Positions 1 to 6,359 of a DNA stretch of 6,359 bases are shown here, in pieces. The notes under the pieces are model-generated. The model was not told the origin of the DNA. It ran no database searches and saw only the letters and a list, made by a program, of their open reading frames with translations. The translations under genes and the position numbers were made by a program. Position 1 is the stretch's first letter; each line of letters begins with the position of its first letter. The DNA lies in the IMG/VR virus record IMGVR_UViG_2695420514_000020, positions 1 through 6,359 of that record; one strand, written 5' to 3'. Source of the stretch: a virus (lineage: Duplodnaviria > Heunggongvirae > Uroviricota > Caudoviricetes).

Positions 1-225
1 ATGAATCAGAAATACATTCCATCATGCTTGAGAAATCTGCCAAAGCAGAAAGCAAAGCCCCGCAAGCAAGCCATAAAGGACGCTAAGGCAGAGGTTATTG
101 ATCAAGCAATACAATTGCTCAGGGAGGAGTTAAGAAGTGGCAAGCTCGAAGGAATGATGATGCCCTATCAGCGCGGATATCTATCGGCGATTAGTAAGTT
201 GGAAGTATTGAAGAGTGAATTATGA
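1..225 (+). CDS. hypothetical small basic protein (74 aa)
   Basis: ATG at 1, TGA at 223-225. Lys/Arg-rich N-terminal half (KQKAKPRKQAIKDAKAE). The window starts exactly at the start codon, so the upstream RBS or promoter cannot be seen. No family recognised. Confidence 0.45.
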   Translation: MNQKYIPSCLRNLPKQKAKPRKQAIKDAKAEVIDQAIQLLREELRSGKLEGMMMPYQRGYLSAISKLEVLKSEL

Positions 226-280
226 ACTATCTGGAATTTCCGGATGGTTCATTGTTTTGGCAGCAAGCATAGAGGTGAAT

Positions 281-577
281 ATGGAATTCAAAGGTACTAA
301 AGGTAAGTGGGAAATAATGATGGATGGCGATGAGATTAAAATCATCCAGGCAGACTCACTTGAAAATGGCGCAGGCTGGCGTTCGTATATTGCAATCTGT
401 GAGGAAGTTCAACGCATTGAAGATGCCAATCTAATAGCGGCAGCACCTGACCTTCTCGAAGCACTTCAGTTATTACTTAAGCAATCAAAAAATAGAACAA
501 CGACAATATATCCAGAATGGTATGGAGCTGTTAATAAAGGTTTTGCAGCAATCATCAAGGCTCTGGGAGGTGAGTGA
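281..577 (+). CDS. hypothetical phage early protein (98 aa), possibly Ead/Ea22-related
   Basis: ATG at 281 preceded by AGAGG (271-275) with a 5-nt spacer. The track ORF extends in frame to GTG 215, which has no comparable RBS. Stop TGA 575-577 overlaps the next ATG (TGATG). Contains the motif NLIAAAPDLLEAL, which I recall from Ead/Ea22-like lambdoid early proteins (memory only, unverified). Confidence 0.55.
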   Translation: MEFKGTKGKWEIMMDGDEIKIIQADSLENGAGWRSYIAICEEVQRIEDANLIAAAPDLLEALQLLLKQSKNRTTTIYPEWYGAVNKGFAAIIKALGGE

Positions 578-672
578 TGTGCGAGTTTTACGAAGCAGAT
601 ATCAAACGCCCAGAAATGGCAAGTGATGCGACATACGTGATTATTTCGCGGCAAAGGCTATGCAAGCAATGA
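577..672 (+). CDS. small ORF (31 aa); possible 5' part of a frameshifted small gene
   Basis: ATG 577 with a strong SD GGAGG (566-570) and 6-nt spacer, overlapping the upstream stop. The ORF ends at TGA 670-672, while a second frame stays open from 627 to 776. Confidence 0.3.
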   Translation: MCEFYEADIKRPEMASDATYVIISRQRLCKQ

Positions 673-776
673 TTAGCAATCCATCGATTATCGATAATGA
701 TTCTGATGGAGCTGTTAATTATGCAGCAAGCGCTGCATATAAGTTTGCAGACGCAATGCTCAAAGCTCGCGAATAA
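660..776 (+). CDS. small ORF (38 aa); possible 3' part of the same frameshifted gene
   Basis: The frame is open from 627 and the first ATG is at 660, with no good SD (AAGG only 2 nt upstream). Stop TAA 774-776. The translation CDIRDYFAAKAMQAMISNPSIIDNDSDGAVNYAASAAYKFADAMLKARE looks protein-like from before the ATG, which suggests it continues the upstream ORF after a frameshift. Confidence 0.3.
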   Translation: MQAMISNPSIIDNDSDGAVNYAASAAYKFADAMLKARE

Positions 777-779
777 GCA

Positions 780-811
780 CTGTGTATTCATTCCAACGAG
801 TGAATACACGG
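780..811 (+). other. inverted repeat / stem-loop without a U-tract
   Basis: GTGTATTCA (782-790) pairs with TGAATACAC (801-809); the stem extends with C780-G811 and a T781/G810 wobble; 10-nt loop. No T-run follows, so this is not a canonical terminator. It sits in the 185-bp non-coding gap. Confidence 0.4.
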
Positions 812-871
812 AGCAATGTCGCTCGTAACTAAACAGGAGCCGACTTGTTCTGATTATTGGAAATCTTCTTT

Positions 872-896
872 GCCCTCCAGTGTGAGGGCTTTTTTA
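872..896 (+). terminator. rho-independent terminator
   Basis: GC-rich 6-bp stem GCCCTC (872-877) / GAGGGC (884-889), 6-nt loop, followed directly by TTTTTT (890-895). The orientation works only on the + strand. It lies inside the track ORF 857-1132, arguing that ORF is over-extended. Confidence 0.7.
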
Positions 897-961
897 TATG
901 CATACCAATAACGCTTCACTTGAGGCGTTTTCGTTATGCAATCAAACAGAAGGAGCATCCT

Positions 962-1132
962 ATGCAACAGTTCGCTATTGCAGGGGCGGCATCGGTTCGC
1001 CCTTTCAACCCGATTTTATCGGTACAGCATTCACGAAAAAATATTTTAACCGGAGCAGACTTTAAACAACCAAGAATGAAAAGTTTGCTCGAAAAGCTTT
1101 GGGATATTTTGAAACAACAAGGCCGTCCATGA
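962..1132 (+). CDS. CIII-like small regulatory protein (putative FtsH inhibitor, lysogeny control), 56 aa
   Basis: ATG 962 preceded by AGGAG (951-955) with a 6-nt spacer. Product MQQFAIAGAASVRPFNPILSVQHSRKNILTGADFKQPRMKSLLEKLWDILKQQGRP. The N-terminal FAIAG and C-terminal SLLEK...LWDILKQQG resemble lambda CIII (MQYAIAG... ESLLER... KRLIDILNQPG) as I recall it. The position upstream of the recombinase matches the lambda order cIII-kil-gam-bet. Confidence 0.5.
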   Translation: MQQFAIAGAASVRPFNPILSVQHSRKNILTGADFKQPRMKSLLEKLWDILKQQGRP

Positions 1133-1236
1133 GTTTTACAGATAACTGGTCAGACGAAGAATTCATTCGTCAGATGAACAAAATGCTCAATCAGCACAAA
1201 GAACAGGAGAAAGATGATGATTCTGACTCTGAATGA
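1129..1236 (+). CDS. hypothetical small acidic protein (35 aa)
   Basis: ATG 1129 overlaps the CIII-like stop (ATGA). Weak SD AAGG (1119-1122). Product MSFTDNWSDEEFIRQMNKMLNQHKEQEKDDDSDSE; stop TGA 1234-1236. It is below the track length cutoff and overlaps the next gene start by 23 nt. It occupies the kil-like position. Confidence 0.35.
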   Translation: MSFTDNWSDEEFIRQMNKMLNQHKEQEKDDDSDSE

Positions 1237-1525
1237 TAAGCGTGAAATATCGCAAATAATCGCAAGTTTTACTGATGAAGATTACGAACGAATCAACAGT
1301 GAAGTTGATCGTCTCTGCAAACGTTGCGACCCCATAAGCGAAATGCTTCGCTCATATAAACCAGATGAACACACTAAGGACGCTATCGACTGGCTGGAAG
1401 ATGATGACTGTAACTATCAGGAAAAAGCCGCTGAATGGTTCTGGGATGCAATAACCGAAAGAGTTAAGGCTGAATATGCCTTCGCAATATTCAAACGCAG
1501 ACATATTTATGGAGAAGCTGCATGA
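1214..1525 (+). CDS. hypothetical protein (103 aa) immediately upstream of recT
   Basis: Tandem ATGs at 1214 and 1217 follow AGGAGA (1205-1210). Stop TGA 1523-1525 overlaps the recT ATG (ATGA). No family recognised. It occupies the gam-like position. Confidence 0.6.
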   Translation: MMILTLNDKREISQIIASFTDEDYERINSEVDRLCKRCDPISEMLRSYKPDEHTKDAIDWLEDDDCNYQEKAAEWFWDAITERVKAEYAFAIFKRRHIYGEAA

Positions 1526-2424
1526 GCAATATCGTTGAATTCGTTAAACAGCAAGAGCAGTTATTCTGCGGAGCATTGACTGAACAGACGGTGACATGGG
1601 CTAAGGAAAGCCAGTTTGCAATTCAGTATTTCCAGAAAAATGATTACCTGGCTAAAACAGCACTGGCAAATCCAACCAGCGCACAGAACGCCATCATCAA
1701 TGTTGCGGCGATCGGCATCACCTTAAACCCGGCCAGCAAACTGGCTTATCTGGTTCCTCGCGACGGCATGGTGTGCCTTGATATCAGTTACATGGGATTA
1801 CTTCATCTTGCGCAATCGACAGGATCAATTAAGTGGGGGCAATGCAAACTGGTGTACTCAAACGACACCTATGAATCAAATGGCCTTGATTCAGCACCAA
1901 CCCACAAATACAACGCATTTGGTGAGCGAGGCTCTATTGTTGGAGGTTATTGCACGGTTAAAACAGCAGATGGTGACTACCTGACTGAAGAAATGAGTCT
2001 GGCAGAAATTAAAGCTGTGGAAGCAACGAGCAAGGCAAAGAATGGACCGTGGAAAACATTCTGGGAAGAGATGGCGCGTAAAACAATAGTTAAACGCGCC
2101 AGCAAATACTGGCCTAAAGCCCAGCGACTGGATAATGCCATTCACCTTCTTAACGAAGATGAAGGTATGCATCAGGAACCAGTTATGCCGCACAAATCAG
2201 AGGAAGATATCCGCGAAGATGAACGGAAACGCCAGCAGGAAATAATGGATAAAGCACAACTTCTTTGCGATGAAATGGCTCAGGCAGAAAACATGGACGA
2301 TTTGAAGCGATATTTTGCAGAAGCATATCGCCTGACATCTGGAATGAAATTGCAGCAGAACGTACAAGCCATTTACATAGAATGCAAAGCGAAACTGGAG
2401 GTTGCCAGTGAGCAAACTGTATGA
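1522..2424 (+). CDS. recT: RecT-family single-strand annealing recombinase (300 aa)
   Basis: The segment NGPWKTFWEEMARKTIVKRASKYWP closely matches the Rac RecT segment NGPWVTHWEEMAKKTAIRRLFKYLP (from memory). Length and surrounding residues are consistent. SD GGAGAAG (1511-1517). Confidence 0.85.
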   Translation: MSNIVEFVKQQEQLFCGALTEQTVTWAKESQFAIQYFQKNDYLAKTALANPTSAQNAIINVAAIGITLNPASKLAYLVPRDGMVCLDISYMGLLHLAQSTGSIKWGQCKLVYSNDTYESNGLDSAPTHKYNAFGERGSIVGGYCTVKTADGDYLTEEMSLAEIKAVEATSKAKNGPWKTFWEEMARKTIVKRASKYWPKAQRLDNAIHLLNEDEGMHQEPVMPHKSEEDIREDERKRQQEIMDKAQLLCDEMAQAENMDDLKRYFAEAYRLTSGMKLQQNVQAIYIECKAKLEVASEQTV

Positions 2425-2890
2425 AATTGCCAATGAATACGCAAAATTGATGGATTCAGATTTAGAACCAGAGATGATTGCTGACACAATAGAAGGCATG
2501 GAAGGAGAATTTACCGATAAAATAGAGCAACTTCTCGCCATTATTAAAAATGAATCTGGTTATGCTGAACGCCTCAAGGAAGAGGCAAAGTCACTAAATG
2601 AGCGAGCCGTAGTAATTCAAAATAAGATTGACAGCATTATGGCGTATATAGCGTCATCGCTTGAAATGGTTGGCAAGAAAAAGATTCGAGCAGGTATTCA
2701 CCAGGTAACAATCCGCAAACCGTCAGAAACTGTAGAAATCATCGACTCAAGCGCCCTTCCTCCTGAATACGTTGAGTTCGAAACGACAATTAAAGCCGAC
2801 AAACTGGCAATCAAACACCAACTAAAAGCAGGAATAAATATCCCCGGTGCTCAACTCAAAGTTGGGAAACCTTCACTTCTTATCAAATAA
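2408..2890 (+). CDS. Siphovirus Gp157-like protein (about 160 aa), common RecT companion
   Basis: GTG 2408 is 6 nt after GGAGG (2397-2401); the track starts at in-frame TTG 2402. Overlaps the recT 3' end by 17 nt. N-terminal KLYEIANEYAKLMDSD...DTIEGMEGEF followed by a coiled-coil region fits my memory of the Gp157 family (PF05565), which typically sits beside RecT or Erf. Confidence 0.6.
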   Translation: MSKLYEIANEYAKLMDSDLEPEMIADTIEGMEGEFTDKIEQLLAIIKNESGYAERLKEEAKSLNERAVVIQNKIDSIMAYIASSLEMVGKKKIRAGIHQVTIRKPSETVEIIDSSALPPEYVEFETTIKADKLAIKHQLKAGINIPGAQLKVGKPSLLIK

Positions 2891-2901
2891 CGGTATCGCC
2901 T

Positions 2902-3216
2902 ATGAAAAAGACTCCATGGGAGAAATGGGAAGTCGATTTCTTGCGCGAAGTAGCGGCGACAATGCCAGTTGAAGTTATCGCTGAAAAACTGGAAAGGACT
3001 GAAAAAGCAGTTATGGCGAAAGCAACAAGGATTGGCGCTGACATTGTTAGCCGACTTCGTGGAAGACGCTGGACAAGAGCCGAAGTATCACTTTTCGGTA
3101 AGTTCTCCGCAGAAGAAATAGCAATTGCAACCTGCCGCTCAATTTATTCAGTAAGAGCTATGCGATACAAGCTAAAAAAACTCGATGAAGAAAGAGCAGG
3201 CATACGAATAAATTAA
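2902..3216 (+). CDS. putative DNA-binding protein with two tandem Myb/SANT-like HTH repeats (104 aa)
   Basis: ATG 2902, 11 nt after the upstream stop, with no strong SD. Two internal repeats share a W-x(2-3)-E-x(2)-L ... EEIA ... R(T/S)-x(3)-(A)VR pattern: [12 protein letters not shown]...[21 protein letters not shown] and [37 protein letters not shown]. Confidence 0.55.
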
Positions 3217-3232
3217 CAAAGAGGAATTTACC

Positions 3233-3397
3233 ATGAGAGGACTTGCATACAATCCCGGCATTCTTCCGGCAGAAATGATTATTCGCCAACGCGTAAAGCC
3301 AATGCCATCGAGAGAGGAATTGCTTAAGAGAAATTCTTTTCCATCAGTGAATCAAAACAAATATCTGAATGCGATGTTGCGGAGTGGGAAGAAATGA
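3233..3397 (+). CDS. hypothetical small protein (54 aa)
   Basis: ATG 3233 preceded by AAGAGGA (3219-3225) with a 7-nt spacer. Stop TGA 3395-3397 overlaps the next ATG (ATGA). Below the track cutoff. Confidence 0.45.
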
Positions 3398-3906
3398 AAC
3401 AAATGACACTAATTGAGATGGATGGTTTTCTGAAAGGTAAATGCATCCCAAGCGATTTAAAGGTTAACGAAACAAACGCTGAATATCTTGTCCGTAAGTT
3501 CGGTGAACTTGAATCAAAACTGGAAACGGCGTTGCGGGAGTGTCGTTCTGCTGGAATCACGATTGATAACCTTGAGGCTAAATGCACGAAGATGGCTGCT
3601 GAAAATACATCGCTTAAGCAATCTGAGAAGGAATTTAATGACTTTTGTCGTGAGGAGTTTAGCGAATGGGAAGATGATGTTACTGAAACTCCAGCCACCG
3701 ATGCTTTTCTGTCTGAAGTGCGGGCGCAGGGGGTGGATGCTGCTATAGAAGCTGCAAAAAATCTGGTGGCCCAAGAATATGAGTATAAGGATTTCAAAGC
3801 GGCGCAGAGTGATTGCTGTATGCACCCTGGTTCAGACCTGGTAGGGAAGGTTGAAATGACTGAGTGGTTAGTTGACTTTGCTGCCCAGCTTCGCAAAGGA
3901 GAGTGA
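3394..3906 (+). CDS. hypothetical coiled-coil protein (170 aa), possibly Ead/Ea22-like
   Basis: Long + strand ORF with a heptad-like charged helical middle ([44 protein letters not shown]). GGAG 3381-3384 upstream. The antisense ORFs across it are Ser-rich low-complexity shadows. Confidence 0.65.
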
Positions 3907-3907
3907 T

Positions 3908-4465
3908 ATGACCACTATAACCGATAAGAAACAGTATCCAGGCGAGCAATATCTTAATGAGCTGATCACCAACATAGAGTTTGCTGCAAGAGCACCAGTT
4001 GAAGTCGTGAGAGCGATGGCTGCAGAGCTACAGAAGCGGCGCGAAGCTGATAGTGCAGAACCTGTAAGCCAAACTTACAAGTTGCCAGTTAATACACCTT
4101 GCCAAGATGCGCCAGCCCATATCTGGCTGCAAACGGCTGGAGTATGGCCAGAAGATGGCGAGTTAAGCGAATTAACGTGGTGCAGCCACAATCAGCACCA
4201 TGATGACACGCTATATGTTCGAGCTGACCTTGTGAATGGCAACTCTCCGGGAACTCCGGATGGTTGGATAAGCTGTAGTGAGCGAATGCCAGAGGACGGT
4301 CAGCACGTAATTATTTTATGTGATGGCGCATTCGTTCTTTATGCGCAATATCGAGACGGTGAGTTTTTCGATATTGTCCGCAATGGTGATGAATTTTTTG
4401 AAACACAGAGCCGCAATGTAACACACTGGATGCCGCTACCAGAACCGCCGCAGGAGGCAAAATGA
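3908..4465 (+). CDS. DUF551-like domain phage protein (185 aa)
   Basis: ATG 3908 preceded by AAGGAG (3896-3901) with a 6-nt spacer; the track start at 3872 lies inside the upstream gene. The C-terminus DGWISCSERMPEDGQHVIIL...VTHWMPLPEPP matches the DUF551 signature as I recall it. Confidence 0.7.
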   Translation: MTTITDKKQYPGEQYLNELITNIEFAARAPVEVVRAMAAELQKRREADSAEPVSQTYKLPVNTPCQDAPAHIWLQTAGVWPEDGELSELTWCSHNQHHDDTLYVRADLVNGNSPGTPDGWISCSERMPEDGQHVIILCDGAFVLYAQYRDGEFFDIVRNGDEFFETQSRNVTHWMPLPEPPQEAK

Positions 4466-4659
4466 TGGATAAATGCCATGGCATTTTAGGTAAGTTGTTC
4501 GGGCACTCATTCAAGCCGGTGATCGCCAAGAGCGCCGTAAAATTCCCAACACGAATTGAAGGAACGCCGTCATTTGTCAGTAGAACGCTGGATGCCCATC
4601 GGGATGAAGATTATCGTGGCCTTTATTGCAAGCGTTGCGGAAAGGAGGTGAAGCCGTGA
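4462..4659 (+). CDS. small putative zinc-binding protein (65 aa)
   Basis: ATGATG at 4462 follows AGGAGG (4452-4457) and overlaps the upstream stop. N-terminal KCHG and C-terminal YCKRCGKE give a Cys/His...CxxC arrangement. Confidence 0.6.
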   Translation: MMDKCHGILGKLFGHSFKPVIAKSAVKFPTRIEGTPSFVSRTLDAHRDEDYRGLYCKRCGKEVKP

Positions 4660-4772
4660 TTACAGTGCTAGCATGGCATTTAAGTGAAAGCATTTATGGC
4701 TGGATGCTGGCAATTACAGCAATTCAGGATTTGGCAATCACATCGTTTATTTTCAGCCTGTGCAGGAGGTGA
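4656..4772 (+). CDS. small hydrophobic peptide (38 aa), putative membrane micro-protein
   Basis: GTG 4656 is 7 nt after AGGAGG (4643-4648) and overlaps the upstream stop (GTGA). Product MITVLAWHLSESIYGWMLAITAIQDLAITSFIFSLCRR; stop TGA 4770-4772. Not in the track (short). The track ORF 4684-5055 covers the same DNA in another frame. Confidence 0.4.
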   Translation: MITVLAWHLSESIYGWMLAITAIQDLAITSFIFSLCRR

Positions 4773-4776
4773 AGTG

Positions 4777-5055
4777 ATGGACTCCTTCGCGAAATATACG
4801 ATTATTGACTGGATAGCATTCCTTCAGGTTTTGCTCATCTGGTTTTATATGGCTTACAGGAGTGGGCAGTGGATTGTCAGTGTAGCCTGTAGCAAGGGAT
4901 GGCGTTGGTGGAACAGAAAGAATAAAAAAGCACTGGCATTGGATTCGTTTTACGAAGCATTCAATCTTAACAGTCTTCAGCCTGGTTCTGTCGTTGTAGT
5001 CACCACTCAAAGTGGCATGACCATTCAGATTCATAAACCAAAAGAGGAAAAATGA
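4777..5055 (+). CDS. small single-pass membrane protein (92 aa)
   Basis: ATG 4777 is 7 nt after AGGAGG (4764-4769). N-terminal hydrophobic segment YTIIDWIAFLQVLLIWFYMAY, then the basic Trp-rich stretch GWRWWNRKNKK. The track's upstream GTG 4684 start gives an implausible Cys/Trp-rich leader with no SD. Confidence 0.6.
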   Translation: MDSFAKYTIIDWIAFLQVLLIWFYMAYRSGQWIVSVACSKGWRWWNRKNKKALALDSFYEAFNLNSLQPGSVVVVTTQSGMTIQIHKPKEEK

Positions 5056-5141
5056 TGTGGCCTATATGTGTTAATTGCGGACGGATGTGCCTATCTGGAT
5101 GGTGCCGAAAGTGCGACAAATGCACGAAGCAAAGACAATAA
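5052..5141 (+). CDS. Cys-rich micropeptide (29 aa), zinc-ribbon-like
   Basis: ATGATG at 5052 overlaps the upstream stop (ATGA). SD AAGAGGA (5042-5048). Product MMWPICVNCGRMCLSGWCRKCDKCTKQRQ has 6 Cys including CxxC pairs. Stop TAA 5139-5141. Confidence 0.4.
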   Translation: MMWPICVNCGRMCLSGWCRKCDKCTKQRQ

Positions 5142-5174
5142 CAATCCTCGCACTCGCGGGGATTTCTTTTATCT

Positions 5175-5200
5175 GAACTCGCTACGGCGGGTTTTGTTTT
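5175..5200 (+). terminator. possible weak intrinsic terminator / attenuator
   Basis: Stem GAACTCGC (5175-5182) pairs with GCGGGTTT (5187-5194), including G-U wobbles, around the tetraloop TACG. It is followed by TTTTGTTTT. Marginal stability. Confidence 0.3.
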
Positions 5201-5212
5201 ATGGAGATGATT

Positions 5213-5512
5213 ATGACTTGTTCAACATTCAACCCTTTAACGTTACAGAAATACCATCCAGACCCTGAAGATTTATGCTCACTGTGTGGCGGAAATCATG
5301 GTAAAGCCGCCATGATCGAATGTAAGGACAAAATCCACATATGCCTTAATTGCGTTGATGTCCTCGTTGATATCAAAAATGAAAGAGAAGATAAAAAGCG
5401 TAGCGAGGCTATTCGCGCCTTAGATTCATGGATGCGAGATGGGTATAGTGCTGCGCAAATTTATGACTTAGCCATTTCAAAAGGCGAAATACCAGGTGTG
5501 CGAATCGAATAA
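5213..5512 (+). CDS. zinc-ribbon-containing hypothetical protein (99 aa)
   Basis: ATG 5213 is 5 nt after GGAGA (5203-5207); in-frame ATGs at 5201 and 5207 are alternatives. CSLCGG ... HICLNC gives a CxxC-x18-CxxC pattern. Confidence 0.65.
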   Translation: MTCSTFNPLTLQKYHPDPEDLCSLCGGNHGKAAMIECKDKIHICLNCVDVLVDIKNEREDKKRSEAIRALDSWMRDGYSAAQIYDLAISKGEIPGVRIE

Positions 5513-5547
5513 GAAGCGCACTCAAGCATCTTTTGGGGAAATCACAA

Positions 5548-5715
5548 ATGCACTTCCTAGTCACAGGTGAATGGAATGGAGAGCCATTCAACAGAGTTAT
5601 CGAATCGGAGAACATCAACGACTGCTACGACCACTGGATGATATGGGCGCAGATAGCACATGCAGAAGTAACCAATATTCAAATTGAAGAACTGAAAGAA
5701 CACCAAGCCGCCTGA
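5548..5715 (+). CDS. hypothetical small protein (55 aa)
   Basis: ATG 5548 is 7 nt after GGGGAA (5535-5540); the track starts at in-frame TTG 5533. Stop TGA 5713-5715. Confidence 0.5.
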   Translation: MHFLVTGEWNGEPFNRVIESENINDCYDHWMIWAQIAHAEVTNIQIEELKEHQAA

Positions 5716-5728
5716 TTGCGGTTTTTTA
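5705..5728 (+). terminator. weak terminator-like hairpin with T-tract
   Basis: Stem CCGC (5708-5711) / GCGG (5718-5721), extendable by A-U and G-U pairs, with loop CTGATT. It is followed by TTTTTT (5722-5727) and overlaps the stop of the 55-aa gene. Confidence 0.35.
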
Positions 5729-5741
5729 TTGGAGACAAGAA

Positions 5742-6086
5742 ATGTCAGATTTGGCTATGAAGGTTTTGAAATGGCAATCGACTGGCGATGTTGGCATCAG
5801 TAGCGCAACTCTTGCCTCAATCGCATGTGGACTGAAAAAGAATATCTATGGTCATAGCTTCGGTGCTCCACATGACGCAGCAGACTTTCGGCGATGCGTT
5901 GCACTTGTTGAGCAGATTCCAGAAATCAGAGATTCATTCGACAAGGTTGCAAAGCGCGTTCCGGCATTCAAAGGAATCCTCAACGAATGGGATTCCCTCG
6001 TTGCTCTGTTGAAGTCTGAAATGAAGATACACGGAAACAAAGCACCAGAGACTTACAGAAGAATTAGCGAGTTACGCAAGGACTAA
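5742..6086 (+). CDS. hypothetical protein (114 aa)
   Basis: ATG 5742 is 6 nt after GGAGA (5731-5735). Clean single long ORF with stop TAA 6084-6086. No family recognised. Confidence 0.7.
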   Translation: MSDLAMKVLKWQSTGDVGISSATLASIACGLKKNIYGHSFGAPHDAADFRRCVALVEQIPEIRDSFDKVAKRVPAFKGILNEWDSLVALLKSEMKIHGNKAPETYRRISELRKD

Positions 6087-6126
6087 CCACAGCCTCACAC
6101 TCGATGAGGCCTGTACATATCTGATA

Positions 6127-6153
6127 GAGCCGCTATATGGCGGTTTCTTTTTG
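6127..6153 (+). terminator. rho-independent terminator, preceded by a second hairpin at 6092-6110
   Basis: Stem CCGC (6130-6133) / GCGG (6140-6143), extendable with wobble pairs, loop ATAT, followed by TTTCTTTTT. Just upstream is a 6-bp hairpin GCCTCA (6092-6097) / TGAGGC (6105-6110). Confidence 0.5.
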
Positions 6154-6167
6154 CCTGGAGAATTAAG

Positions 6168-6359
6168 ATGAGCGATACTAGCCTGATTCCTGAGAAAGAA
6201 GTGATGAACAAGCTCGGTGTTTCATCACGTCAGACAATCTGGAACTATACCAAACGGCACGGATTTCCGAAGCCAGTCAGAACCCACCCCAAATCATACC
6301 TTCGTGAAGCTGTTGAAGGGTGGATTCTTAACGGTGGCGTTAATCAGAAATGCTCCTGA
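6168..6359 (+). CDS. AlpA/Xis-family HTH DNA-binding protein (63 aa); putative excisionase or integrase activator
   Basis: ATG 6168 is 7 nt after GGAG (6157-6160). Pattern IPEKEVMNKLGVSSRQTIWNYTKRHGFPKPV...EAVEGWI matches the AlpA/Xis-family arrangement (…EV…G.SR.TIY…G.FPKP…W) as I recall it. The window ends at its stop codon. Confidence 0.65.
   Translation: MSDTSLIPEKEVMNKLGVSSRQTIWNYTKRHGFPKPVRTHPKSYLREAVEGWILNGGVNQKCS

Follow-up and report, generated by a model that had tools for sequence, protein, structure and literature searches.

The accessory genes that lambdoid phages carry in their exo-xis region are small and non-essential, lie tightly packed, are expressed early, and for the most part have no known function (PMC8614690, PMC8022706). 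In lambdoid early operons, tight stop-start overlaps of the ATGA type are known, and most genes of the early-left part have no known function (PMC8022706). Rad52-like phage recombinases form mosaics at short and diverged homologies (PMC3945230). The present study concerns a stretch of 6,359 nucleotides of a Caudoviricetes virus (IMG/VR record IMGVR_UViG_2695420514_000020, positions 1 to 6,359), hereafter referred to as the window, which represents the leftward early region of an enterobacterial prophage of lambdoid or P22-like type, carries every gene on the + strand, and encodes a RecT. It is focused on two neighboring genes in the window, i.e., a gene for a small hydrophobic protein of 38 residues (4656..4772, + strand; GTG start, TGA at 4770-4772; VITVLAWHLSESIYGWMLAITAIQDLAITSFIFSLCRR) and a gene for a 92-residue protein of the DUF4752 family (4777..5055, + strand; ATG start, TGA at 5053-5055; PF15944, phrog_667). 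An earlier note on this DNA had described both open reading frames (ORFs) and taken them for a single membrane module with an exclusion or host-targeting function. Both ORFs are present as described there and are judged to be genuine genes. Comparison among loci, however, identifies them as two independently shuffled single-gene accessory cassettes, brought side by side by chance, and not as a dedicated module. High confidence is attached to the architectural conclusions, namely that the two are independent, translationally coupled genes of an early operon, that one is a member of DUF4752 and the other of a small-protein family under selection, and that each product contains one long hydrophobic helix.

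Homologues of the small gene were sought with a 40-residue query (the protein plus two upstream residues), a degenerate DNA pattern, and an alignment led by a 41-residue member, and the gene contexts of the window and 22 other small-gene loci, 23 sequences altogether, were compared (loci are cited by L numbers). A hidden Markov model scan detected DUF4752 in the fetched flanks of only six of these 23 sequences, leaving 17 without it; the small gene is directly adjacent to DUF4752 in the window only, and in L022 DUF4752 lies upstream of the small gene. The two-gene module of the earlier note founders on these counts, i.e., on an adjacency restricted to the window and on the 17 of 23 small-gene sequences with no DUF4752 nearby. 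The small gene has at least six distinct downstream and at least eight distinct upstream neighbors. Its downstream position is occupied by DUF4752 (window only), a 70-residue gene (L001, L005, and L007 among others), an 85-residue gene (L004 and L009), a 65-residue Cys-rich gene (L006 and L008), a 30-residue hydrophobic ORF (in a Klebsiella phage), or nin-region genes such as NinB (L010, L013, L017, and L020-L023), and its upstream position by several different DUF551 proteins, a 412-residue HAD/PNKP protein, DUF3850, or proteins of 65, 71, 79, 180, 287, and 290 residues. The settings comprise the early-left region, the nin region on the early-right side, and a contig that also encodes a T7-type RNA polymerase. 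Furthermore, the position directly downstream of the small gene is taken in L001, L005, and L007 by a gene for 70 or 71 residues (MSKHIIKYDY...), which in L010-L012 and L015 is found directly upstream of it instead (3135-3347 in L001; 6690-6905 in L010, reverse-strand coordinates); cassette order, as these gene maps are read, is permuted between phages. The two genes also differ in abundance: the segment 4762-5200 of the window, which carries DUF4752, is matched in up to 2559 of 5426 complete Escherichia coli genomes, and small-gene DNA in three of the 5426. One gene is very common and the other very rare, and neither needs the other.

The two genes are connected to their upstream neighbors by the same joint. 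The block AGGAGGTGAAG occurs in the window in two exact copies, both on the + strand, although only approximately 0.003 exact copies of an 11-mer are expected in 2 x 6359 positions. The copy at 4643..4653 is the ribosome-binding site (RBS) of the small gene and encodes the ...EVK tail of the preceding 65-residue gene (4462..4659), and the copy at 4764..4774 is the RBS of DUF4752 and encodes the Arg-Arg-stop of the 38-residue protein. As the earlier note had observed, identical initiation blocks precede both genes, with an AGGAGG core ending 7 nt ahead of each start codon; as the mark of a two-gene module they have lost their value, because the same block is a generic junction between many unrelated genes. 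Nearly all other loci likewise have the AGGAGGTGAAG block with GCCGTGA ahead of the small gene, whichever gene lies upstream. The conserved form of the junction is approximately (G)CAGGAGGTGAAG(CC)GTGA or ...TGATG, which combines an RBS with overlapping stop and start codons. In junction alignments, the sequences 5′ of (G)CAGGAGGTGAAG are unrelated between loci, and those from the start codon onward are conserved in accordance with the downstream gene. The window resembles other DUF4752 loci from 4762 onward and other small-gene loci up to 4774, so that the two tracts of similarity overlap in the 13-bp block only.

The junction lies within coding sequence and encodes the last residues of the upstream gene, by which unrelated proteins gain a common ...EVKP tail. 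Upstream proteins as unrelated as DUF551, HAD/PNKP, DUF3850, and those of 65, 71, 79, 180, and 287 residues all end in ...(Q)EV(K/N)P followed by the stop, and the shared tail codons are those of the junction CAGGAGGTGAAGCCGTGA (window, 4643-4659; L001, 2999-3017; L006, 4031-4049; L008, 3162-3180; also L010, L013, L017, and L021). In the window, the C-terminus ...GKEVKP of the 65-residue protein is written by the junction block, and the TGA of its gene overlaps the GTG start of the small gene (GTGA). The earlier note had described the 38-residue product as hydrophobic and ending in RR. Both descriptions hold, although the RR is not a special feature of the protein, being the AGG AGG of the RBS of the next gene. 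Small-protein variants with other junctions still have basic C-terminal ends; the charge may, therefore, also serve the small protein. Finally, the sequence of the window at 4762-4779 is the same as the left block of L001 placed directly before the DUF4752 start context, i.e., L001 minus its 70-residue cassette. A joint located within the blocks fits a deletion via recombination between two junction copies, and it is from this pattern that we infer the mechanism of exchange.

The small gene is supported as a coding sequence by the variation among its homologues. Its frame is the only one without stops in all nine distinct nucleotide variants, and variable sites number 12/7/20 at the three codon positions, i.e., they are clustered at third positions. 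The ratio of nonsynonymous to synonymous differences per site (pN/pS) is 0.26 in this frame (summed Nei-Gojobori estimate over the nine variants) versus 0.86 and 1.04 in the other frames. Because the pattern search enforced 13 codons and thus introduced a bias toward conservation, the ratio was recalculated in two ways, yielding 0.29 outside the 13 pattern codons and 0.35 with only those sequences found by BLAST or protein searches; the other two frames stayed at 0.72-1.22 in these controls. The other frame that is open in the window (from GTG 4684, in frame with DUF4752) contains stops in five of the nine variants. Amino-acid changes are conservative (I/L/V, S/A/T) despite DNA divergence down to 82% identity. 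The earlier note had made the reality of this gene depend on a conserved, stop-free frame under purifying selection, and this is what the nine variants display (pN/pS of 0.26-0.35). The RefSeq annotation (PGAP, the Prokaryotic Genome Annotation Pipeline) omits the gene in all three E. coli genomes carrying it, and in E. coli ET826 (L004 2541-2891, NZ_CP100901.1) a 116-residue ORF is called across it, with a start inside the small gene and in the wrong frame.

Apart from the three E. coli genomes, the small gene was found in one Klebsiella phage (82% identity, annotated gp47), in nine IMG/VR viral contigs, and in one Enterobacter genome among the GTDB species representatives, and protein searches returned eight clusters in 5.8 billion sequences, one of them named "putative membrane protein" by NCBI. 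Searches of Pfam, PHROGs, NCBIfam, and PADLOC yielded no family match for the 38-residue protein. The ORFs of its homologues span 34-41 codons and share a conserved core, I/L-Y-G-W-M-x-x-x-T-x-x-Q-D-L-A, within one hydrophobic helix, to which the 38-residue protein conforms; the invariant residues include Y14, G15, W16, M17, T21, Q24, D25, L26, and A27, and further protein variants retain the YGWM..T..QDLA core and a basic C-terminus. On this alignment, the gene is a member of a rare, unnamed family of 34-41 residues of enterobacterial phages. Among the carriers of the small gene is a 43.8-kb contig (L006 5947-8162; L008) that encodes a T7-type single-subunit RNA polymerase and additionally carries an Ead/Ea22-like gene, endonuclease VII, and DUF3310; its presence there implies that junction-flanked cassettes move between lambdoid and non-lambdoid phages. 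Other tiny hydrophobic ORFs are present close to the small gene in the same arrays, one of 30 residues (MKPYIIRRLIAASLLAFWISIALAFYFILR; L003 2626-2718) and one of 40 residues (MNKCNALLYAMVIGFGLAAGIRVYITWESLINLAWSAIRG; L005 2846-2968), and these cassette arrays may repeatedly carry small membrane peptides.

The 92-residue protein belongs to a family that is already catalogued. It matches Pfam DUF4752 (PF15944) with 123.6 bits (cut-off, 27) and an E value of 3.3e-36, residues 8-91 aligning to positions 2-84 of the 84-position profile, and phrog_667, a family of unknown function, with 1.9e-38. No match was found for it in PADLOC or NCBIfam. The versions common in E. coli prophages are 97-99% identical to it and are named "DUF4752 family protein" by NCBI. 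The statement of the earlier note that no family was recognizable is thus incorrect for the 92-residue protein (DUF4752, 3.3e-36) and correct for the 38-residue protein, which has no library match. A clear match to a characterized family was to have overturned the proposal of that note; DUF4752 is itself uncharacterized. A full-text literature search for DUF4752 returned no papers, and the papers on the exo-xis region describe neither the 38-residue nor the 92-residue protein. A tblastn search located the 92-residue protein in the lambdoid siphoviruses HK106, mEp043, and mEp213, in the P22-like podoviruses ST104, CUS-3, IME10, and Kapi1, and also in Shiga toxin (Stx) phages, Klebsiella phages, SPN1S, and the P1-like D6. 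The family is nevertheless narrow, comprising 46 clusters at E values up to 1e-3 in a profile search of 1.84 billion representative proteins.

Members of DUF4752 are approximately 80-100 residues long and consist of a hydrophobic N-terminal helix, a basic stretch, and a conserved C-terminal A..FY.AF...PG....T..G..I.I pattern, and the 92-residue protein conforms to this layout. Its basic Trp-rich stretch, KGWRWWNRKNKK, is at residues 40-51, and GWRWWNR is invariant among close homologues; an N-terminal helix followed by this stretch, as reported in the earlier note, is corroborated by hydropathy, AlphaFold2, and alignment. By these comparisons the protein is an ordinary DUF4752 member, with no significant difference from the family. 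A profile search with the DUF4752 alignment against PDB sequences gave nothing below an E value of 0.06, and a Foldseek search of the model, of which the C-terminal half is of low confidence, gave nothing below 3 against PDB. Some metagenome gene calls extend DUF4752 N-terminally with unrelated sequence (P0001, 129 residues; P0005, 154 residues). Immediately downstream, a 29-residue Cys-rich ORF (MMWPICVNCGRMCLSGWCRKCDKCTKQRQ, CxxC...CxxCxxC; 5052..5141, + strand) overlaps the DUF4752 stop (ATGATG). With no more than one substitution, it accompanies DUF4752 in L001, L009, and HK106 (annotated gp30), and the similarity to other DUF4752 loci spans it and continues through to 5200. As the loci compared indicate, this ORF is a more regular companion of DUF4752 than the small gene and travels with the 92-residue variant; beside a 94-residue variant of DUF4752, an ASCH-domain gene takes its place.

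Both products have the features of membrane proteins. The best 19-residue Kyte-Doolittle mean is 1.73 for the 38-residue protein (residues 18-36) and 1.78 for the 92-residue protein (residues 8-26), the classical cut-off being 1.6. AlphaFold2 models the peptide as one continuous helix of residues 2-37 with a predicted local distance difference test score (pLDDT) of 90, and the 92-residue protein as a helix of residues 3-45, a helix of residues 50-61, and a hairpin of residues 72-86, with a mean pLDDT of 66 and values of 78-88 for residues 11-40. Membrane insertion of both products is likely from these predictions, and the description in the earlier note of small, probably membrane-anchored proteins of an early operon is upheld. 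Seven basic residues follow the DUF4752 helix (R28 and those of KGWRWWNRKNKK). According to the positive-inside rule, basic residues flanking a membrane helix face the cytoplasmic side, and the basic residues after each of the two helices therefore suggest an N-out/C-in orientation. With respect to expression, a scan for sigma-70-like promoters on both strands of 4300-6359 found no site, versus 4.0 expected in shuffled sequences, the simple consensus used making this a weak test, and terminators in the scanned region appear only after 5141. The lack of a promoter-like site, together with terminators only past 5141, indicates that the genes are probably transcribed from an early promoter upstream, following induction or infection, rather than in the repressed prophage. 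For genes of the equivalent exo-xis region, the earliest expression in lytic development is reported (PMC8614690). The analogy to SieB in the earlier note is weakened, as neither a promoter-like site for expression in the lysogen nor a SieB match was found; exclusion by a prophage requires expression in the lysogen, and as none is indicated, SieB-like exclusion in lysogens is argued against.

Several other explanations of the locus were considered. A single co-functional membrane module of the 38- and 92-residue proteins, acting in exclusion, abortive infection, or host killing, would be in keeping with genes that are adjacent and translationally coupled, with two hydrophobic products, with the identical initiation blocks, and with the six of 23 sequences in which DUF4752 lies a few genes from the small gene. 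However, the adjacency is seen in the window alone and the order is reversed in L022, purifying selection on the small gene persists although DUF4752 is not nearby in 17 of 23 sequences, very many genomes have DUF4752 but lack the small gene, the shared blocks are junctions of a generic kind, and the searches returned no PADLOC match, no SieB or other Pfam match beyond DUF4752, and no lysogen promoter, which makes such a module very unlikely. The 38-residue product might also be a membrane-damaging toxin, similar to type I toxins or holins, that kills or arrests the host as a pore-forming oligomer. It is short and hydrophobic, its one long helix bears a polar stripe (E11, Y14, T21, Q24/D25, and T29), and its C-terminus is basic, a shape that recalls small pore-forming toxins by analogy only. 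The architecture of type I systems is missing at the locus, where neither strand has a promoter-like site, Rfam yielded neither an antisense RNA nor any other match, and RNA structure is not significant; the gene is translated from a strong RBS in an early operon, coupled to the upstream gene, and is not kept silent; and it lies outside a lysis cassette, in the part of the early operon that extends from RecT to the xis-like gene, and matches no holin or toxin family. A toxin is, on balance, improbable.

The 117-bp segment could, furthermore, be a spacer or an RNA element serving translational coupling or recombination, in which the ORF is incidental. Its very small size, the two copies of the junction block that flank it, the RR tail dictated by the RBS of the next gene, and the frame from GTG 4684, which is also open in the window and is annotated in one RefSeq genome, are all compatible with this possibility. 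It is rendered highly improbable by the codon-position pattern (12/7/20), by pN/pS of 0.26-0.35 against approximately 1 in the other frames, by stops in alternative frames in five of nine variants, and by amino-acid changes that stay conservative at 82% DNA identity. A scan of the whole window against Rfam gave no match at E values up to 1, and the RNA folding of 4630-4790 is unremarkable (z = -1.4); an RNA element in the small-gene segment was accordingly dropped. The same frame from GTG 4684 could make DUF4752 a 123-residue protein that overlaps the 38-residue frame, since it is open from 4684 and the gene calls P0001 (129 residues) and P0005 (154 residues) are likewise N-terminally extended. 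However, 4684 has no RBS in front of it and ATG 4777 has a perfect one, the ATG is where all full-length homologues as well as the Pfam and PHROG profiles begin, the extensions of P0001 and P0005 resemble neither one another nor the window, and the extension frame is stopped in other small-gene variants. This start is scarcely conceivable and was rejected for the missing RBS and the ATG start of the homologues.

The explanation preferred as a whole, which is regarded as rather probable, comprises two separate cassettes in the variable recombinase-to-xis part of the early operon together with a mechanism inferred from their sequences. The cassettes are joined by the junction, whose RBS and stop-start overlap would let their genes be translated in succession along a long early transcript, and the junction would also serve as the site at which cassettes are swapped, inserted, or deleted by recombination. 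Both products would be made early after induction or infection and not in the lysogen, and would insert into the inner membrane with the short N-terminus outside and the basic C-terminal side in the cytoplasm. Each would act alone, either binding a host inner-membrane protein or self-associating via buried polar residues (Gln24-Asp25 in the peptide; Asp11 and Gln17 in DUF4752), and the outcome would be an altered host membrane function or a block to the entry of competing phages during lytic growth. The last part, i.e., that each protein separately modulates host inner-membrane function or competing-phage entry early in lytic growth, is put forward tentatively and falls somewhat short of probable; an exclusion or host-targeting role of either gene during lytic growth is possible. 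A more specific version is doubtful: the peptide, with its mid-membrane Gln-Asp, would represent an undescribed family of small membrane proteins that modulates a specific host inner-membrane complex and is spread as a cassette, by junction recombination, between quite different phages. In that version, the target could be a membrane protease, a defence effector bound to the membrane, or a transporter or channel through which phage DNA enters, and the phages could be lambdoid phages (in both early operons), Klebsiella phages, and phages encoding a T7-type RNA polymerase.

Several observations weigh against the explanation with two cassettes and membrane-acting products. The junction of 13-17 bp is shorter than the minimum of approximately 30 bp quoted for Red-beta (PMC3945230). 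Simple sums on the Hessa scale are positive for both helices (+4.1 for the peptide and +2.8 for DUF4752), and both helices contain charged residues; the invariant Gln-Asp lies in the middle of the peptide helix. The C-terminal domain of the 92-residue model has a pLDDT of approximately 56 and no fold match and points to no specific target. The promoter scan, based on a simple consensus, could miss weak or non-sigma-70 promoters. Finally, the co-occurrence of DUF4752 with the small gene in six of 23 sequences leaves room for a loose functional association, tempered by the fact that DUF4752 is very common in such arrays anyway.

The remainder of the window has the organization of an early operon. 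RecT (1522-2424, + strand) is followed by a siphovirus Gp157-like gene and an Ead/Ea22-like region, which lie between it and the DUF551 gene (3908-4465, + strand), and an excisionase-like (xis-like) gene starts at 6168 (+ strand). Thousands of E. coli prophages share pieces of the window at 95-99% identity, and the best complete E. coli genome covers at most 65% of it; judged from these matches, the window is a typical mosaic. The 65-residue gene upstream of the small gene (4462..4659, + strand) contains Cys/His residues and has weak matches, a sub-threshold one to DUF1660 (E value of 0.01) and a partial one to phrog_30313 (1.6e-5). It is itself rare, and its Cys/His pairs (C5, H6 ... C56, C59) suggest a small zinc-binding protein. 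Two tandem intrinsic-terminator-like hairpins (5143-5164 and 5175-5194, + strand), conserved in L001 and L009, end the translationally coupled gene chain at 5143-5194. The genes beyond, at 5213-5512, 5548-5715, and 5742-6086, are separated by intergenic gaps, unlike the tight chain upstream of 5141, and more terminator-like hairpins are located at 5705-5724 and 6127-6146. The first of these genes (5213-5512) encodes a 99-residue protein of phrog_3680 (unknown function), whose resemblance to the ClpX C4 zinc finger is weak and below threshold (E value of 0.014 in Pfam and 0.002 in NCBIfam), and the second (5548-5715) encodes a 55-residue homologue of lambda Orf55 (phrog_676), of which the HK106 counterpart, gp28, is noted as similar to lambdap35.

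With respect to significance, what appeared to be a novel two-gene exclusion module resolves into two independent accessory cassettes, one of them encoding a catalogued domain of unknown function. DUF4752 is already catalogued; the rare small-protein family and the junction-tail pattern are the parts worth following up. The 38-residue gene exemplifies, with good support, the very small phage genes missed by annotation, and, if a membrane target were found, its product would be added to the few small phage proteins by which host membranes are manipulated. The junction exemplifies how a block of RBS and stop-start overlap can serve as a joint for gene shuffling in the early operons of temperate phages, and it also shapes the C-termini of unrelated proteins.

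Several known systems are comparable to this locus in part. DUF4752/phrog_667 occupies the same niche elsewhere, i.e., arrays of early accessory genes, in lambdoid, P22-like, Stx, and Klebsiella phages and in the P1-like D6. The exo-xis and ea genes of lambdoid phages (lambda orf60a, orf61, orf63, orf73, ea8.5, ea22, and Orf55) are alike in position, between the recombination genes and xis. By contrast, the 38- and 92-residue proteins are of membrane type and have no sequence similarity to exo-xis proteins, of which those modeled by others have soluble folds that bind DNA, RNA polymerase, or zinc, a search of that paper finding no membrane protein (PMC8614690). Type I toxins (Hok, Ldr, TisB, and Ibs) combine an antitoxin RNA with a silenced toxin mRNA, neither of which was found at the locus, and holins and antiholins belong to a late lysis cassette, whereas the genes here are in an early operon and have no holin match in Pfam or PHROGs. 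The lambda Kil and CIII families likewise gave no match in Pfam, NCBIfam, or PHROGs. Lambda and P22 SieB, HK97 gp15, and T4 Imm are small phage inner-membrane exclusion proteins with one or two helices, encoded among non-essential genes. The likeness to them concerns a possible way of working only, as no sequence similarity and no own promoter for the lysogen were found; among exclusion and defence families, neither protein matches PADLOC at E values up to 1, the sole Pfam match is DUF4752, and the PHROG matches are all of unknown function. AcrZ, MgrB, MgtS, and KdpF are bacterial small membrane proteins that modulate larger membrane complexes. They resemble the 38-residue peptide in having fewer than 50 residues and only one helix, whose span contains or adjoins polar or charged residues by which a partner could be bound, and differ in that there is no homology and that the small gene is phage-borne and a horizontally mobile single-gene cassette. 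As for the joint itself, comparable repeated joints are part of the "linker" idea in the modular theory of lambdoid phage evolution. The PeSL cassettes of T4-type phages are alike in that a short conserved regulatory repeat between non-essential genes marks points of insertion, deletion, and replacement (PMC2839356); PeSL, however, is a promoter-plus-terminator unit (PMC2839356), whereas the repeat described here is a translational junction of approximately 13-17 bp that lies within coding sequence and adds the ...EVKP tail to the protein upstream.

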